Source: Candidatus Parcubacteria bacterium
GTDB lineage: Bacteria; Patescibacteriota; Minisyncoccia; UBA6257; HR35
Assembly (NCBI GenBank): GCA_026004495.1
Contig: BPJG01000001.1
Location: 277,133-341,132, forward strand
DNA: 64,000 nt
Direction of reading: 5' to 3'
The notes under the pieces are model-generated. The model was not told the DNA's origin. It worked only from the letters and a program-made list of their open reading frames with translations, and did not search any database. Within the stretch, counting starts at the first letter, position 1. Every line of letters begins with the position of its first letter. Positions 1 through 35,664 of the stretch are shown in pieces. A program made the position numbers and the translations under genes.

Positions 1-635
1 ATTTCCTGATTTACTTTTATCTTCTGAATTTTTTTAAGTCGTCTATAACTATTAATTAAATTAATTTTTTCTTGAGTAGATAATTTTTCATCCGACACTA
101 TAAACATGTATTCGTAAACATTAATGGATTCAAAAATTTTGTACAAAAGATAAAATAATTCATCTAAAATTGGTTCTAATAGTTTTTCGGTTGCCTCTAT
201 ATACATTTTGTATTGTTTTCTTGGCTTTTCCTCGTTTATAAAATCTACTGCAAATTTAGTTAAAGCGACACTATCTATAGTTTCTCTTTTGTCAGGCGAT
301 ACTAATTCCCCTTTTGGATTATATCGATTCAGAAAACCCATTGTATCCAAATCTGGAAATATGTTCTTTTTTAATGAATTAACTGTTCCTTGTTCAATTA
401 CATTTTCTAAAACATCAACAATTTTATAATAAGTTTCACAACCTTTTTGCTTTTTACCTTTCCAGTCGCCAATATGAATTTTGAAAATAGAGGTTCCGGC
501 AATATTATTAATTGTCTTTAAAATTTCTAATACCTTATCGAAAGGCAATCTATTATGTTGCGATAAGTGTATACCTCTATAGTCTTCACGTTTTATTCTT
601 TCAAAGATATATTTTAAAAATTTATTTTGGTCCAT
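1..635 (-). CDS. Hypothetical protein, partial (N-terminal 211 aa in window). Probably the restriction endonuclease of the adjacent R-M module.
   Basis: I translated the minus strand by hand. The ATG lies at 635-633, 7 nt downstream of the methyltransferase stop at 643. The reading frame stays open to position 1 with no stop codon (MDQNKFLKYIFERIKREDYRGIHLSQ...KIKVNQE). It lies in the same orientation and is tightly linked to two methyltransferases and a controller protein. The ORF is not in the supplied track because it runs off the window. I recognise no catalytic motif, so the function is inferred from position only. Confidence 0.4.
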   Translation of the reverse strand, partial: MDQNKFLKYIFERIKREDYRGIHLSQHNRLPFDKVLEILKTINNIAGTSIFKIHIGDWKGKKQKGCETYYKIVDVLENVIEQGTVNSLKKNIFPDLDTMGFLNRYNPKGELVSPDKRETIDSVALTKFAVDFINEEKPRKQYKMYIEATEKLLEPILDELFYLLYKIFESINVYEYMFIVSDEKLSTQEKINLINSYRRLKKIQKIKVNQE

Positions 636-642
636 ATAAAAT

Positions 643-1431
643 TTATTTAGATAATTTATTCATCTCCAATAGACGCTTTTGGGCAATCTCTACATATTTT
701 CTGTTATTATCGCATCCAATAAAATTTCTATTAAGTTTTTTTGCCGCGATTGCAGTTGTTCCTATGCCGATAAAGCAATCTAATACAAGATCGCCGGGAT
801 TGCTACTTGCTTTTATAATTCTTTCAATCATATCTAGTGGCTTTGGCGTTAAGTGGGGCAATTTAGGTGTCTTTCCATTAATTTTATTTTTATGTCTTTC
901 GCTCGAAAAATGCCATACATCGGTACATAATTTACCCTTAGGATTCGGAAACCACCTTTTCCCCTTCTTAAGAATTCCTTTAATTTTAGCATGCTCTATT
1001 CTTTCTGCCGACTCATAAGGAACTCTAATTTCATCTGTATTGAATGTGTAATTATTGCTTTTCGTGAAAAATAATATTGTCTCTTGTCCATTTGTATATT
1101 TTCTTTTCGCAGCAGATAACCCATCTCTTTTATCCCAAGTTATCCAGTTCTGGAAAATTAAACTTTTTTTTATCAAGTGTTGTAATATAAAAGCCGAGTT
1201 AAAAGGAGTATTAAAAATATACAAACTTCCAGTTTTTTTAAGTTTTGGTACTAAAGAATCTATCCATTTGTAAGTAAAGTTAAGAAAATCATCATGGGAT
1301 TTAAAGGTATCCCATTTTGCTTTTTTTAAATTGTAAGGCGGATCAATTACAGCGAGATCTATTACCTCATTGTCAATCTTGCTTAAAAAATCAAAACAAT
1401 CCATTAAATAAATTTTATTTATCTTAAGCAT
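643..1431 (-). CDS. DNA methyltransferase, beta-class N6-adenine or N4-cytosine (DPPY motif)
   Basis: Motif IV VIDLAVIDPPYNL is near the N-terminus and motif I LVLDCFIGIGTTAIAA is near the C-terminus. This permuted order is typical of beta-class amino-methyltransferases (N4/N6 methylase domain). Confidence 0.85.
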   Translation of the reverse strand: MLKINKIYLMDCFDFLSKIDNEVIDLAVIDPPYNLKKAKWDTFKSHDDFLNFTYKWIDSLVPKLKKTGSLYIFNTPFNSAFILQHLIKKSLIFQNWITWDKRDGLSAAKRKYTNGQETILFFTKSNNYTFNTDEIRVPYESAERIEHAKIKGILKKGKRWFPNPKGKLCTDVWHFSSERHKNKINGKTPKLPHLTPKPLDMIERIIKASSNPGDLVLDCFIGIGTTAIAAKKLNRNFIGCDNNRKYVEIAQKRLLEMNKLSK

Positions 1432-1436
1432 ATTTA

Positions 1437-2300
1437 CTAAAATAATTGTTTTTGTTTAATCTCAGCTAATCTTAATTTTTCTTCAATAATATCTTTATAA
1501 GTTTCCATTATTTCGTAACCGACATAGTTTCGGCCTAATTCTTTAGCCACCTTTAAAGTAGTCCCAGAGCCCGCAAATGGGTCTAAAACTATATCCCCAA
1601 TAAAAGTAAATAATTTTACACATCTCCTTACAATCTCTTCTGGCATAATAGCGGAATGTTTTCCGAATGCTATATCATCTTTACCGGGAATAGGTATATT
1701 CCAAATCTGCTTGGTGTATTCTGTCCATTCTTTTTCGGTAAGTTTACTTTTTTCTCGTATTTCTTCTGGCACATTGTTATCTGGTTTTCCATCTTTCACA
1801 TATACGGTAATAAATTCACTTGTATTTTGGGCATAAAAATTTCTGGGATATGGATAACTGCCAAACATTAAATCCTTTGATGGATTAGTTCTATTCCAAA
1901 TATAGATGTCATATAAAAATAATTTTGTATTGTTCAAAATGGAATGTTCTATATCAGCGTTAATATCAAAAATATGTCTATTGTAATGAGTATTAAAATC
2001 TTTTTTAAGCATTGGCATTAAAGGAACATTAATCACTAACTTTCCATTTGGTTTTAAAACCCTTTCGCATTCTTTCCAAACTTTTAACATTTCTTTAATG
2101 TATTGTTTATAATCCTCAATATCTCCAATTTGTCCTTCTTTTTTCTCAGTGATTTTATTTACTTGATAACCATCTTTTGAGTAATCTTTTATATTAAAAT
2201 ATGGCGGTGAGGTCACTATTAAATGAATAGAATTATCCGGAATTTCAGACATATTCCTTGCATCTTTATAAAATACTTTATTTATAAAATCTTTGGTCAT
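1437..2300 (-). CDS. DNA methyltransferase, beta-class (SPPY motif, N4-cytosine-like)
   Basis: IHLIVTSPPYFNIKDY is motif IV; SPPY/SPPF is common in m4C methyltransferases. Motif I (FxGxG) appears as LDPFAGSGTTLKVA near the C-terminus. The stop lies 6 nt upstream of the next methyltransferase start. Confidence 0.85.
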   Translation of the reverse strand: MTKDFINKVFYKDARNMSEIPDNSIHLIVTSPPYFNIKDYSKDGYQVNKITEKKEGQIGDIEDYKQYIKEMLKVWKECERVLKPNGKLVINVPLMPMLKKDFNTHYNRHIFDINADIEHSILNNTKLFLYDIYIWNRTNPSKDLMFGSYPYPRNFYAQNTSEFITVYVKDGKPDNNVPEEIREKSKLTEKEWTEYTKQIWNIPIPGKDDIAFGKHSAIMPEEIVRRCVKLFTFIGDIVLDPFAGSGTTLKVAKELGRNYVGYEIMETYKDIIEEKLRLAEIKQKQLF

Positions 2301-2515
2301 ACTTTTATTAACTGGTCTAAAGAAATATCCAAAGCCTTTGCAATTTTAGCAACGACAAAAACTGAAGGTTTTTTAATAACGCCAACCTCTATCTTTGTTA
2401 ATGTTGTATAGGGGACATCAGCTTTTCGAGCTAATTCGTCCTGCGAAAGATTCTTTTTTAATCTTAATTCTTTTATTTTTTTGCCTAATAAATTATTGAC
2501 TTGTTTATTTACCAT
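2297..2515 (-). CDS. XRE-family HTH protein, probably an R-M controller (C) protein
   Basis: A 72-aa protein with a helix-turn-helix signature: LSQDELARKADVPYTTLTKIEVG. Its stop overlaps the methyltransferase start (ATGA). It sits first in the apparent operon. Confidence 0.65.
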   Translation of the reverse strand: MVNKQVNNLLGKKIKELRLKKNLSQDELARKADVPYTTLTKIEVGVIKKPSVFVVAKIAKALDISLDQLIKV

Positions 2516-2526
2516 ATTGTGATATC

Positions 2527-2555
2527 ATTAAATTGTTGACACTGCTTACTTTCAA
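2527..2555 (-). promoter_or_regulatory. Candidate sigma-70 promoter for the controller-methyltransferase operon, giving a near-leaderless transcript
   Basis: On the minus strand: TTGAAA (2555-2550), a 17-nt spacer, then TTTAAT (2532-2527). The ATG at 2515 follows about 11 nt later. A perfect palindrome TGATATCA lies at 2520-2527, between the -10 element and the ATG. Confidence 0.3.
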
Positions 2556-2589
2556 GATTATAATAACATAAAATTAAAAATCAAACAAC

Positions 2590-2815
2590 AATTTTTCGCC
2601 CGCGAAGCGGGCGTGAAGGGTGGGCAGGCTCCGAAAATTAAGCCCGCAAAAATTTAATTCATTTTTAAAGGAAAAAATTTGTCGCCCGCCCTTAAATAAA
2701 ATTAAAAAATTTTGCGGGCTTGTCCGCTAAAGGCGGACTTTCGGAGCCATGGGTGGGAATCCGCGAAGCGGATTTCTGCCCCGCCCCGCAAAGCGGGGCG
2801 GGGCAGTTCAGTCAG
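2590..2815. other. GC-rich cluster of nested hairpins of unknown function (possible structured RNA or recombination-associated element)
   Basis: Hairpins: CGCCCGC-GAA-GCGGGCG (2597-2613), ATCCGC-GAA-GCGGAT (about 2758-2772), and a 13-bp stem TGCCCCGCCCCGC-AAA-GCGGGGCGGGGCA (about 2777-2805). Long-range complementary pairs: GGCTCCGAAA (2628) with TTTCGGAGCC (2737); AAGCCCGCAAAA (2640) with TTTTGCGGGCTT (2710); plus GTCCGC-TAAAG-GCGGAC. The GCGAAGC core also recurs inside the 72-bp inverted repeats. Confidence 0.35.
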
Positions 2816-2861
2816 CGTCAGGATTTTGTTGATAGAAAGTTCTAACTTTTTCAAGTAAGTT

Positions 2862-2933
2862 CCACCATAGACGATTTGTTTCGCCCTCGCCCCTCGCTTC
2901 GCTCGGGGCTCGGGCTTCGGCGGGCAGAAAATA
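2862..2933. repeat. Left copy of a perfect 72-bp inverted repeat (IR-L)
   Basis: By manual alignment, the reverse complement of 4429-4500 is identical to 2862-2933 over all 72 positions. About 65% GC. Contains CCACCATAG, the complement of the tRNA-Glu 3' end. Confidence 0.9.
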
Positions 2934-2991
2934 TTTTCGCCGAAGGCGAAAATTCAAAGCGAAATTTTTTAAAAATTGTCGGTGTAAAAAT

Positions 2992-4551
2992 ATGATTAAA
3001 TATTTCATCTATTGTCGAAAATCAACCGAGGAAGAAGAAAGACAAATTCTGTCTATTGAGGCACAACTTCAAGAGCTTCGGGATTTTGCAAAACAAAATA
3101 ATCTTTTTGTTGTCCGCGAATTTACCGAAAAACAATCGGCCAAAGAACCGGGCCGTCCGATTTTTAATGAAATGCTTTCACGAATTGAAAAAGGAGAAAC
3201 TAATGGAATTTTAGCGTGGAATCCCGACCGCCTCGCCAGAAATTCCATTGATGGCGGACGAATTATTTATCTCGTTGATACCGGAAAAATTACCTCGCTA
3301 AAATTCCCGACTTTCTGGTTTGAGCCAACGCCACAAGGAAAATTTATGCTTTCGGTGGCTTTTGGCCAAGCCAAATATTACACCGACAATTTGAGAGAAA
3401 ACATTTTGCGAGGAATAAGACAAAAACTTCGTAGAGGAGAATTGCCGGCAAAAGCGCCACTTGGCTATTTCAATGAGCCAAGATTAAGAACAATTGAACC
3501 AGACCCAAAAACTTTTAAGAAAGTAAAACAATGTTTGGAATCTTTTGCCACTGGCGAATATACTTTAACAAAAATTCAGAGCAAAATGTTTTCTCTTGGC
3601 TTGGTTGGCAAAGACGGAAAACCTTTGCATCTTTCAACAATTCAAGGAATTTTAACCAACCCCTTTTATTATGGAATGTTTTTGTATCGTGGCGAACTAT
3701 ATCAAGGAAGCCATAAGCCAATGATTACAAAGAAACTTTTTGACAAAATACAGGAAGCACTAAAACAAAATAGTAAGCCCCGCAAAAAGCGAAAAGAAAA
3801 ACAATTTTTGTTTTTAGGTTTTGCCCGCTGTGGTGAATGTGGTTATATGATTACTGCTGAAAAACACATTAAGAAAAGCGGTTTAGAATTTGTTTATTAT
3901 CGCTGTACTAAAAAGAGCAAAACAATAAAGTGTTCACAAAATCGCTTTTTGCGGGAAGAAAAATTAGCCGAGCAAATAAAAGATTATGTTCAAAAAGTTT
4001 CTTTACCCGATGAGTGGCGAGAGAAATATCTTGCTAAAGTTAACGAGTGGGAAAAAGAAAATCTTCACTCATCAGAACTTTTCGCTCAAAATCTTAAAAC
4101 TGAATTAGAGAAAGTAAAGTCAAAAATAAATCGCCTGATGGACGCGTATCTTGAAGGCGATTTGGAATTGCCAGAATTTCAGTTAAAGAAAAACGAATTG
4201 ATGACAAAAAAGAAAGATATTGAGGAAAAATTATCTGATTTTGAGCGAAAAGGCAATCATTGGCTCGAACTCACCAGAAATTGGATAATTGAAGCCAACC
4301 AAGCCAAAAATTTCGTTTTGGAAGGTAATTTTTCAGAGATGAGAAATTTTCTACAAAAAATCGGTTCGAACCGAACAATTCGCGACAAAAAACTTACAAT
4401 AGAATTTAAAAAACCTTGGGATTACCTTTATTTTCTGCCCGCCGAAGCCCGAGCCCCGAGCGAAGCGAGGGGCGAGGGCGAAACAAATCGTCTATGGTGG
4501 CCCCAAGGGGAATCGAACCCCTATTTCCACCTTGAAAGAGTGGTGTCCTAG
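2992..4551 (+). CDS. Large serine recombinase (resolvase/integrase family)
   Basis: N-terminal resolvase catalytic motif YCRKSTEEEERQ (nucleophile Ser). A recombinase domain follows. A Cys-rich zinc ribbon: ARCGECGY...YYRCTKKSKTIKC. Coiled-coil C-terminus. Total 519 aa. The last about 40 codons are encoded by IR-R and by the antisense tRNA-Glu, so the true stop is uncertain. GC content is higher than in the flanking genes. Confidence 0.85.
   Translation: MIKYFIYCRKSTEEEERQILSIEAQLQELRDFAKQNNLFVVREFTEKQSAKEPGRPIFNEMLSRIEKGETNGILAWNPDRLARNSIDGGRIIYLVDTGKITSLKFPTFWFEPTPQGKFMLSVAFGQAKYYTDNLRENILRGIRQKLRRGELPAKAPLGYFNEPRLRTIEPDPKTFKKVKQCLESFATGEYTLTKIQSKMFSLGLVGKDGKPLHLSTIQGILTNPFYYGMFLYRGELYQGSHKPMITKKLFDKIQEALKQNSKPRKKRKEKQFLFLGFARCGECGYMITAEKHIKKSGLEFVYYRCTKKSKTIKCSQNRFLREEKLAEQIKDYVQKVSLPDEWREKYLAKVNEWEKENLHSSELFAQNLKTELEKVKSKINRLMDAYLEGDLELPEFQLKKNELMTKKKDIEEKLSDFERKGNHWLELTRNWIIEANQAKNFVLEGNFSEMRNFLQKIGSNRTIRDKKLTIEFKKPWDYLYFLPAEARAPSEARGEGETNRLWWPQGESNPYFHLERVVS
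4429..4500. repeat. Right copy of the perfect 72-bp inverted repeat (IR-R)
   Basis: Exact reverse-complement match to 2862-2933. Overlaps the last 6 nt (CCACCA) of tRNA-Glu at 4495-4500. Confidence 0.9.
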
Positions 4552-4569
4552 CCGTTAGACGATGGGGCC
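4495..4569 (-). tRNA. tRNA-Glu (anticodon UUC), CCA encoded
   Basis: Hand fold of the reverse complement: acceptor GGCCCCA/TGGGGCC; D stem GTCT/GGAC; anticodon stem CCACT/GGTGG with loop CTTTCAA; T arm AGGGG-TTCGATT-CCCCT; discriminator A followed by CCA. Confidence 0.8.
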
Positions 4570-4598
4570 TTTTTTATAACTAAAATAAATTTTTAGTG

Positions 4599-4671
4599 AG
4601 GCACGGGTGGGATTTGAACCCACGTATAACGGTTTTGCAGACCGTTTCCTAACCTCTCGGACACCGTGCCG
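4599..4671 (-). tRNA. tRNA-Cys (anticodon GCA)
   Basis: Hand fold: acceptor GGCACGG/CCGTGCC; 3-bp D stem; anticodon stem ACGGT/ACCGT with loop CTGCAAA; T arm GTGGG-TTCAAAT-CCCAC; discriminator U. No CCA encoded. Confidence 0.8.
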
Positions 4672-32527: not shown

Positions 32528-35497
<2,970 letters not shown>

Positions 35498-35664
35498 AAA
35501 AATTACATTAACTTATAAATATTTTCTATCTTAAAATAAATTTTGAGAGAACATTCAAAATAATTCTCTTTATTTTCTATAATTATTTTTAAATAATATC
35601 TCTCAGCCAAGAATATCTATTTTTTTAAATTTTTATAAAATCAAATTATCTATTGTTATTTATT

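Follow-up and report, generated by a model that had tools for sequence, protein, structure and literature searches.

A tRNA-targeting serine recombinase island of Candidatus Parcubacteria with a putative attachment site inside its own integrase gene and an inverted spare copy of that gene's 3' end

The stretch of 64,000 nucleotides (nt) from Candidatus Parcubacteria contig BPJG01000001.1 that was analyzed here (the window, to which all coordinates refer) contains near its left end a gene for a large serine recombinase lying between two perfect inverted repeat arms, the right one of which overlaps the 3' end of a tRNA-Glu gene. Based on comparison with related loci, we propose that each of the two 72-bp arms quite probably represents a copy of the same attachment-site P-arm, belonging to an island of approximately 6.2 kb that is inserted in the tRNA-Glu 3' end. 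What we regard as shown by the junctions of this and related islands is twofold: a large serine recombinase island that enters tRNA 3' ends via an element attachment site (attP) within its own recombinase gene, and the carriage by that island of an inverted, functional spare attP together with a second copy of the gene's 3' end. The family appears to constitute a widespread and apparently undescribed variant of serine-integrase islands.

The arms were recovered in a repeat search at positions 2862-2933 (left inverted repeat, IR-L) and 4429-4500 (right inverted repeat, IR-R) and were verified by script to be 100% complementary over their 72 nt, with 1495 nt between them. Their guanine-plus-cytosine (GC) content is 62.5%, as against 26.4% for the window, in which the only GC-rich spots besides rRNA and tRNA genes are both arms and a block at ~2590-2840. 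Allowing up to three mismatches, the 48-nt core of the arm occurs twice in the window and in none of 100 shuffles; as related genomes carry such arms around the genes of relatives, the repeat is a conserved design feature of the family and not a chance occurrence. The recombinase open reading frame (ORF) spans 2992-4551 on the plus strand and encodes 519 amino acids, with the gene body at 2992-4428, arm-encoded linker codons at 4429-4500, and 17 host codons at 4501-4551 antisense to tRNA-Glu(UUC), itself located on the minus strand at 4495-4569 (ARAGORN; 65.5 bits with Rfam). A minus-strand ORF at 2808-3008 shares the peptide FLPAEARAPSEARGEGETNRLWW with the recombinase ORF. The original prediction, which was made from the letters of the window, had described exact, GC-rich reverse-complementary arms, an overlap of the right arm with the CCACCA terminus of the tRNA (its last 6 nt), and a recombinase frame crossing IR-R into the antisense tRNA such that one peptide is encoded on both strands, and on each of these points it is borne out; its statement that the 1,495-bp segment holds the 519-residue gene stands for the gene body only, with the final 41 codons situated in the arm and the tRNA. 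The adjacent tRNA-Cys gene (4598-4670) lacks an encoded CCA and tRNA-Glu encodes one, the CA of which is supplied by the inserted element.

We then considered the related contigs that were compared with the window (L001-L171). In 58 reference-genome loci the right arm shares 4-6 nt at its outer end with the 3' end of a convergent tRNA, the targets being tRNA-Ala in 54 cases (with all three anticodons represented) and tRNA-Val and tRNA-Glu in two cases each; this recurrence supports the suggestion of the original prediction that the element is mobile, recombinase-driven and aimed at tRNA 3' ends. The recombinase frame remains open across the arm in 47 of 47 loci, where it reads TGG-TGG (WW) and reaches a stop in the antisense tRNA 3-240 nt beyond the arm. 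In what follows we denote the arm X or X', the native recombinase tail T, the GC-rich 3' region G, and a reverse complement rc. A comparison of junctions in 11 loci resolved them into attL, which consists of host DNA, GTGG and T, attR, which consists of X', GTGG and the tRNA, and a spare site consisting of X', GTGG and T, with GTGG alone being shared by all three; the spare site is on this basis an intact attP. The attB sites reconstructed for these 11 loci all contain CCAC, whether or not the CCA is complete, and comprise a tRNA 3' end followed by unrelated flank. In the window, based on the repeat search and these triads, IR-L would represent the P-arm of the spare inverted attP, with its CCAC core at 2862-2865, and IR-R the P-arm of attR, that is, the recombinase 3' coding end up to the crossover, with its GTGG core at 4497-4500; tRNA-Glu would be the integration target and contribute the B half-site of attB, with the CCAC of its nt 71-74 as the crossover core. 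Hence, attP (X'-GTGG-T-G) sits inside the recombinase's own 3' coding end, so that integration alters the end of the gene.

The dimensions of the sites are in keeping with this assignment. On the tRNA strand, attB has the GTTCGA of the T-loop at a distance of 18-13 nt from the core and the T arm has a GTTCTGA at a distance of 23-17 nt, placing the outer motif 5 nt closer to the core in attB than in attP. In serine integrases the outer, zinc-ribbon motif is likewise said, as Rutherford and colleagues reportedly found in 2013, to be ~5 bp closer to the centre in attB half-sites than in those of attP, and the half-sites of the present family thus appear to obey the canonical serine-integrase geometry. 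The expectation that large serine recombinases use short sites with a small crossover also holds here, the common core being 4 nt.

The evidence for the spare copy comes from the sequence to the left of IR-L, of which the first 40-60 nt are conserved among unrelated hosts. The minus strand there encodes, in frame with the left arm, a tail that is conserved in the family as WW-CLLEKVRTHFEQNPD-stop; in the window, where it occupies 2808-2861, it reads NLLEKVRTFYQQNPDAD plus stop, and we interpret it as the spare native C-terminal tail, rc(T). The tail peptide, WW-C/S-L-L/F-EKVRT-H/F-F/Y-EQNP, is found in ~40 loci, and its stop marks the end of the homology between loci. It has the signature of a coding sequence in that entropy is highest at third positions and the ratio of synonymous to nonsynonymous changes is 1408:2446 in frame, as against 522:2987 and 186:3346 out of frame; furthermore, 35 of 36 loci have an uninterrupted spare frame. 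Because the conserved tail behaves as coding sequence, the left arm and the tail are best understood as an inverted copy of the native recombinase 3' end. In the full-length gene of the window the native tail would then have been exchanged for host-derived codons, and a complete second copy of the 3' end of the gene together with attP, in inverted orientation, would span 2593-2933. The coding part of the spare copy ranges from 60 to ~650 nt (L084, L085).

The remainder of this copy, rc(G) at 2593-2807 on the minus strand, is a GC-rich (52%) and hairpin-rich block that would be the inverted copy of the native 3' untranslated region after the recombinase gene. It also contributes to the proximal arm of another pair of inverted repeats, which brackets the cargo of the island. 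Its folding z-scores are -7.8 and -9.9, and Rfam scans of the GC-rich block and the arms, in the window and five related loci, returned tRNAs only. The G arms of many loci contain a stem, GGGCGGGCAAAAA...TTTTTGCCCGCCC, around a G-rich loop of the form GGAGGGG-N3-5-GGGGAGG or its C-rich complement, the loop being found in either orientation relative to the tail (window 2593-2807 and L004, L005, L018, L021, L035, L040, L044, L054, L070 and L088); this hairpin region is a candidate terminator, accessory site or origin. To its left lies a site resembling a sigma-70 promoter (TTGACA-17-TATAAT, 2536-2564 on the plus strand), which matches the consensus at 12 of 12 positions and faces the spare copy and the recombinase gene. 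Of 20 related loci, 11 have a similar TTGACA-17-TAtnAT ahead of the GC-rich arm, and the site is a putative promoter. With a second promoter-like site at 2557-2584 on the minus strand it forms a back-to-back pair between the gene for a helix-turn-helix (HTH) controller and the GC-rich block. On the other side of IR-L, the recombinase leader (2934-2991, plus strand) contains a hairpin at 2933-2953 and a conserved motif, AAATTGTCGGTGTAA, at 2973-2987, which precedes the ATG in nearly all related loci compared.

The far end of the island was recognized from a further copy of the same sequences: in at least 16 loci T and 100-350 nt of G recur on the opposite strand 2-6 kb to the left with 94-100% identity, and in loci with long left flanks this distal copy starts exactly at GTGG beside unrelated DNA. 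The integrated layout can consequently be written as host / GTGG-T-G, cargo, rc(G)-rc(T)-CCAC-X, leader, recombinase body, X'-GTGG / tRNA, in which two inverted-repeat pairs abut and meet at the core of the spare site, the X arms surrounding the recombinase and the T+G arms the cargo. The same layout recurs in more than 100 related loci of the Candidate Phyla Radiation (CPR). The right-hand part of the window's cargo occupies 1-2515 on the minus strand and comprises a partial ORF (1-635), two N6/N4 DNA methyltransferases (643-1431 and 1437-2300) and an HTH protein of the controller type (2297-2515), and by its composition looks like a Type II restriction-modification module. A Logan contig retrieved through a cargo methyltransferase query (L086) is 100% identical to window 1-2622 and runs 1495 nt past the left edge, where it contains two further ORFs. 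At either end it terminates within one and the same 30-nt sequence, present in opposite orientations and corresponding to window 2593, indicating that the cargo of the window is ~4.06 kb in length and bracketed by inverted G arms; it would contain the HTH controller, the two methyltransferases and the two additional ORFs. On this reckoning the element of the window would measure ~6.2 kb, with attL ~1.8 kb to the left of the window start. This attL is predicted to consist of host DNA, GTGG and AACTTACTTGAAAAAGTTAGAAC..., followed by the inverted copy of 2593-2807, and the empty site of a tRNA-Glu ending in ...GGGGCCAC joined directly to the left-flank host DNA. Across islands the cargo varies from 1.5 to 5.7 kb and is seen in both orientations relative to the recombinase. 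In 19 related islands most of it is made up of Type II restriction-modification systems accompanied by HTH controllers, of OLD/Gabija-like ATPases and of miscellaneous accessory genes; no candidate for a directionality factor was recognized among the cargo genes, for which no dedicated search was made. A prophage origin was considered and dropped, viral contigs having given two partial matches only.

Pfam assigns the Resolvase, Recombinase and Zn_ribbon_recom domains to the protein: the resolvase-type catalytic domain (PF00239, E 8.6e-22) covers residues 5-150, and is accompanied by the Recombinase and zinc-ribbon domains (PF07508 and PF13408). A Y-C-R-K-S motif at residues 7-11 is invariant across 60 relatives. 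The window protein holds serine recombinase domains only, which excludes the chemistry of tyrosine recombinases. The nearest solved structure is the C-terminal domain of the A118 serine integrase (4KIS, E 3e-8), and an AlphaFold2 model, a check that had been suggested with the original prediction, displays a zinc ribbon with a coiled-coil insertion and long helices at 340-387 and 393-420 (moderate confidence). An exact-protein lookup of the 519-residue ORF gave no match.

A scan with one genome per species recovered more than 514 relatives at 68-80% amino-acid identity, nearly all from Patescibacteria (CPR), and about 6,200 database proteins belong to the family. Near-perfect inverted arms of 124-136 bp surround the gene in almost all of 80 genome loci where sufficient flank is available, those of the window's subgroup measuring 68-84 bp, and the tRNA-fused state dominates again in 80 metagenome loci from the Joint Genome Institute. 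The median identity between arms is 100% within loci (24 of 47 pairs are perfect) and 51% between loci, which points to their continuing homogenization or regeneration. In most arms a GC hairpin closed by a 3-nt loop is found at ~40 nt from the core, with 18 distinct stems observed; stems of at least 8 bp occur in 45% of arms versus 0.3% of shuffles in a per-sequence hairpin search, and RNAalifold on a MAFFT alignment of 35 arms, in which indels misalign the hairpin, predicted no pairs. As the AlphaFold2 model places the arm-encoded residues in a linker that is of low confidence and probably disordered, the constraint on the arms seems to act on the nucleic acid and not on the protein. A single-stranded hairpin attP comparable to that of the CTX phage was rejected, since a serine recombinase, which exchanges both strands in concert, would in that case produce chromosome ends closed by hairpins.

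Four metagenome-assembled genomes hold two copies of the element on separate contigs (L002/L006, L010/L053, L028/L062 and L050/L055), consistent with several usable tRNA targets per genome. Distant relatives of 36-60% identity read into other antisense tRNAs, namely tRNA-Gln (L057), tRNA-Asp (L165) and tRNA-Asn (L171); no spare tail copy was detected upstream of these three genes, and the in-gene attP may thus predate the inverted spare copy. Very many public CPR contigs (L001-L171) start or end inside the repeats or within ~300 nt of them. Elsewhere in the window, GC-rich segments at ~32700-35500 on the minus strand resemble a 23S rRNA gene with AT-rich interruptions.

Other states of the element bear on what the spare copy might do, for which we rely most on cases termed robust, whose arms are too dissimilar to be collapsed by assemblers. 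The native tail is present in 19 of the 120 best full-length database homologues. In one robust locus, L083, a spare copy is followed by a recombinase with the native tail, G, an HTH gene and cargo, the arms being 78% identical; in another, L108, the recombinase runs into the tail of a lineage other than that of its own spare copy, as would be expected in a tandem array. Both would represent an unrecombined in-gene attP with the native tail. Two further robust loci have tRNA genes at the spare site. L087 is a 46-kb chromosomal contig on which a same-strand tRNA-Ala is joined at its CCACCA to X, the leader and an intact native-tail recombinase, and in L121 a tRNA-Ala(cgc) lies upstream and a tRNA-Ala(tgc) downstream of the recombinase segment, the arms being of different lineages over their outer 60 nt. 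The junctions between the spare site and a tRNA in both loci show that the spare site is competent for recombination. A lone recombinase segment between two convergent tRNA-Ala genes is thus observed at L121:149-2023, and possibly in L042. The arrangement of L121 implies that the two attP copies each recombined with a tRNA gene of their own; had these genes once been far apart, the intervening chromosome segment would have been inverted and the cargo left at the other breakpoint. Among the 80 genome loci an upstream co-directional tRNA was seen in three (L042, L049 and L077). L088 contains 448-bp perfect repeats with a period of 8,026 bp, consistent with a circle or a tandem array; its interpretation as a proven 8,026-bp circle was dropped, as a wrap-around would predict a different sequence for its first 53 nt.

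As the junctions show, crossover at CCAC fuses the gene body and X' to the antisense tRNA, forming attR (the right arm), and displaces the final 15-20 native codons (T) along with G to attL on the far side of the cargo. In light of these observations we posit the following course of events. By stripping the conserved tail, integration may disable or change the enzyme and so yield a self-limiting, stable insertion, and the dominance of the fused state may reflect the stability of this self-limited form. Recombination from arm to arm would join the gene body to an intact tail once more and place the gene downstream of the tRNA promoter, and the restored enzyme would serve later excision. A RecA-type homologous exchange between the arms could perform the restoration, and would account for the identity of the arms within a locus as well. 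Insertion through the spare site, on the other hand, would leave an intact enzyme and a free attP capable of rearranging the chromosome, perhaps as in L121. The most plausible role of the spare copy would be to restore an intact integrase by inversion, although it might instead act in regulation, as a leader or an operator, be left over from a second gene, or simply offer another opportunity for integration. In its most explicit form, which we put forward as a tentative possibility, the spare copy is a built-in repair switch, in which insertion locks the enzyme and a rare inversion across the 72-136-bp arms re-arms it, achieving directionality control without a separate factor. The re-fused gene would then be transcribed by read-through from the tRNA, and excision or a further attP x attB reaction would follow, the latter perhaps inverting the chromosome between tRNA genes, as L121 suggests.

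Several observations weigh against this account of the arms and the spare copy. The change of activity upon loss of the tail is a matter of inference, and AlphaFold2 models the tail with low confidence (predicted local distance difference test, pLDDT, ~50), such that its docking place is not readable. The window's own attL lies outside the window and was not recovered, no empty tRNA-Glu site was found in a related strain, and the crossover is placed to the 4-nt GTGG core and not to a dinucleotide within it. Two loci, L007 without most of the spare arm and L002 without the whole spare copy, indicate that the spare is dispensable in some copies. A single orientation is seen in 58 assemblies; the contigs of L042, L049 and L077 terminate within the right arm and could have been turned around by the assembler, and L088 might have arisen from an assembler walking in a cycle through 448-bp repeats that it had collapsed.

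With regard to the alternatives, the spare copy might have no restoring role and be instead a gene-converted relic of a second recombinase gene, or a regulatory element, either a recombinase-bound operator upstream of its own gene or a 5' leader pairing with the 3' end of the mRNA; we consider this rather unlikely. The spare is indeed a 3' gene fragment whose variable coding length (as in L084 and L085), and whose shortening or loss in L007 and L002, recall a decaying second gene, while the strong promoter-like site that precedes it would have it transcribed as a leader and the arms carry the conserved GC hairpin with its 18 stem sequences. However, conservation of the tail at the amino-acid level with an open frame in nearly all loci, the presence of the spare in nearly every locus with arms that are usually 100% identical, and its demonstrated past service as a recombination site in L087 and L121 argue against such a reading, though an additional regulatory role is still compatible with them.

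Less probable still is a dedicated self-inversion switch of the Hin type, in which the enzyme flips 2934-4428 to toggle its own expression or that of its neighbours. Perfect inverted arms do surround the gene, both arrangements exist in nature (the gene being co-directional with the tRNA in L087), the cargo occurs in both orientations relative to the recombinase, and relatives are labelled in databases as "DNA invertase Pin-like". Against this, the arms are accounted for as the arms of attR and attP, and attL, attB and cargo can be identified; the 58 independent assemblies agree in orientation; and the 519-residue, three-domain enzyme is of the integrase type, as opposed to invertases of ~190 residues with a C-terminal HTH. 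Moreover, passages in PMC3783163 report serine integrases to be limited to attP x attB, or to attL x attR with a directionality factor, and a pairing of attR with attP to be non-recombining. The self-encoding invertible segment envisaged by the original prediction finds weak support, in the alternative arrangements of L087 and L121, and is disfavoured by that reported pairing rule and the uniform orientation.

The other reading offered by the original prediction, a transposon of ~1.7 kb resembling an insertion sequence with long terminal inverted repeats and inserting at tRNA 3' ends, is refuted in that homology continues past the left arm and attL is situated 2-6 kb further left, and we regard it as very improbable. 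The compact arm-gene-arm unit next to the tRNA, the many contigs that end near the left arm, and the lone recombinase segment between the two tRNA genes of L121 would all be expected of such an element. Yet the sequence beyond the left arm is conserved among unrelated hosts and encodes the native tail, the conserved unit extends via the GC-rich arm and the cargo to the distal junction, the outer end of the left arm would be an intact attP in place of a junction with target DNA, and contig breaks are normal assembler behaviour at such repeats. Finally, an assembly artefact, either a fold-back or a mis-joined repeat, can be practically dismissed: perfect inverted repeats are known to mislead assemblers and several related contigs end in the arms or turn round at them, but the architecture occurs with lineage-specific arms in more than 100 independent assemblies from varied projects and assemblers, and an independent Logan assembly matches the window at 100% up to the repeat.

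If the two arms are copies of a P-arm as we propose, small cargo-carrying islands are very widespread in CPR bacteria, whose mobile elements are poorly known, and the self-cutting integrase, which has been reviewed as a peculiarity of archaeal tyrosine enzymes, extends to a large family of bacterial serine recombinases. For an enzyme class used in genome engineering, the family furnishes many natural attP/attB pairs, all directed at a feature of universal occurrence, namely the acceptor end and T-loop of tRNA. Furthermore, the repeats explain frequent contig breaks beside tRNA genes in metagenome-assembled genomes, and possibly turn-around mis-joins. Full-text literature searches returned no account of this CPR family or of an inverted spare attP; overlap of a recombinase gene with attP is already known from Dehalococcoides, and the inverted spare copy is without description in the literature searched.

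Among known systems, the yeast 2-micron plasmid combines the FLP tyrosine recombinase with 599-bp inverted repeats bearing identical sites, and uses them to amplify a replicating plasmid. If the free form of the present element is circular, it likewise has long perfect inverted repeats (448 bp in L088), each containing a site of the recombinase and together dividing the circle into two unique segments, one with the recombinase gene; no replication genes are seen here. With the Hin, Gin and Pin systems the family shares a serine recombinase gene accompanied by inverted repeats, whereas the small enzymes with a C-terminal HTH, the 26-bp sites, the enhancer and the lack of integration that characterize those systems are all absent here. 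The integrases of A118, phiC31 and Bxb1 have the same domains and short, imperfectly symmetric sites with a small core. Elements of that type are phage borne, with one attP outside or near the gene and a separate directionality factor; relatives of the present recombinase, in contrast, are nearly absent from viral contigs (the two partial matches). The "suicidal" integrases of the SSV type, reviewed as exclusively archaeal, likewise have attP in the gene and integrate into tRNA genes, thereby partitioning the gene, and the intact gene has been proposed to exert its own directionality control (PMC8371274). These are tyrosine enzymes whose gene breaks into large pieces and which have no spare fragment, whereas here a bacterial serine enzyme loses only its last 15-20 codons. 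A close parallel is also provided by the ssrA islands of Dehalococcoides, in which the ~540-residue serine recombinase DsiB adjoins the attachment junction at the 3' end of the transfer-messenger RNA (tmRNA), a target with a tRNA-Ala-like acceptor end (McMurdie et al. 2011, PMC3146451). The 3' end of dsiB overlaps attP/attL and reads into the antisense tmRNA, making its stop codon dependent on context, and the authors proposed that dsiB is fully functional perhaps only on the circle or beside a fragment supplying the 3' end (PMC3146451). Like the present family, those islands have variable cargo and no replication genes (PMC3146451). They differ in their 20-bp direct repeats and insertion at the T-loop, as opposed to a 4-nt core at tRNA nt 71-74, and in the small serine recombinase DsiA and module genes that stand beside DsiB, where here the recombinase stands alone; finally, an inverted repeat is not mentioned in PMC3146451, whereas the islands described here carry an inverted spare copy of the gene's 3' end together with what appears to be an intact attP.

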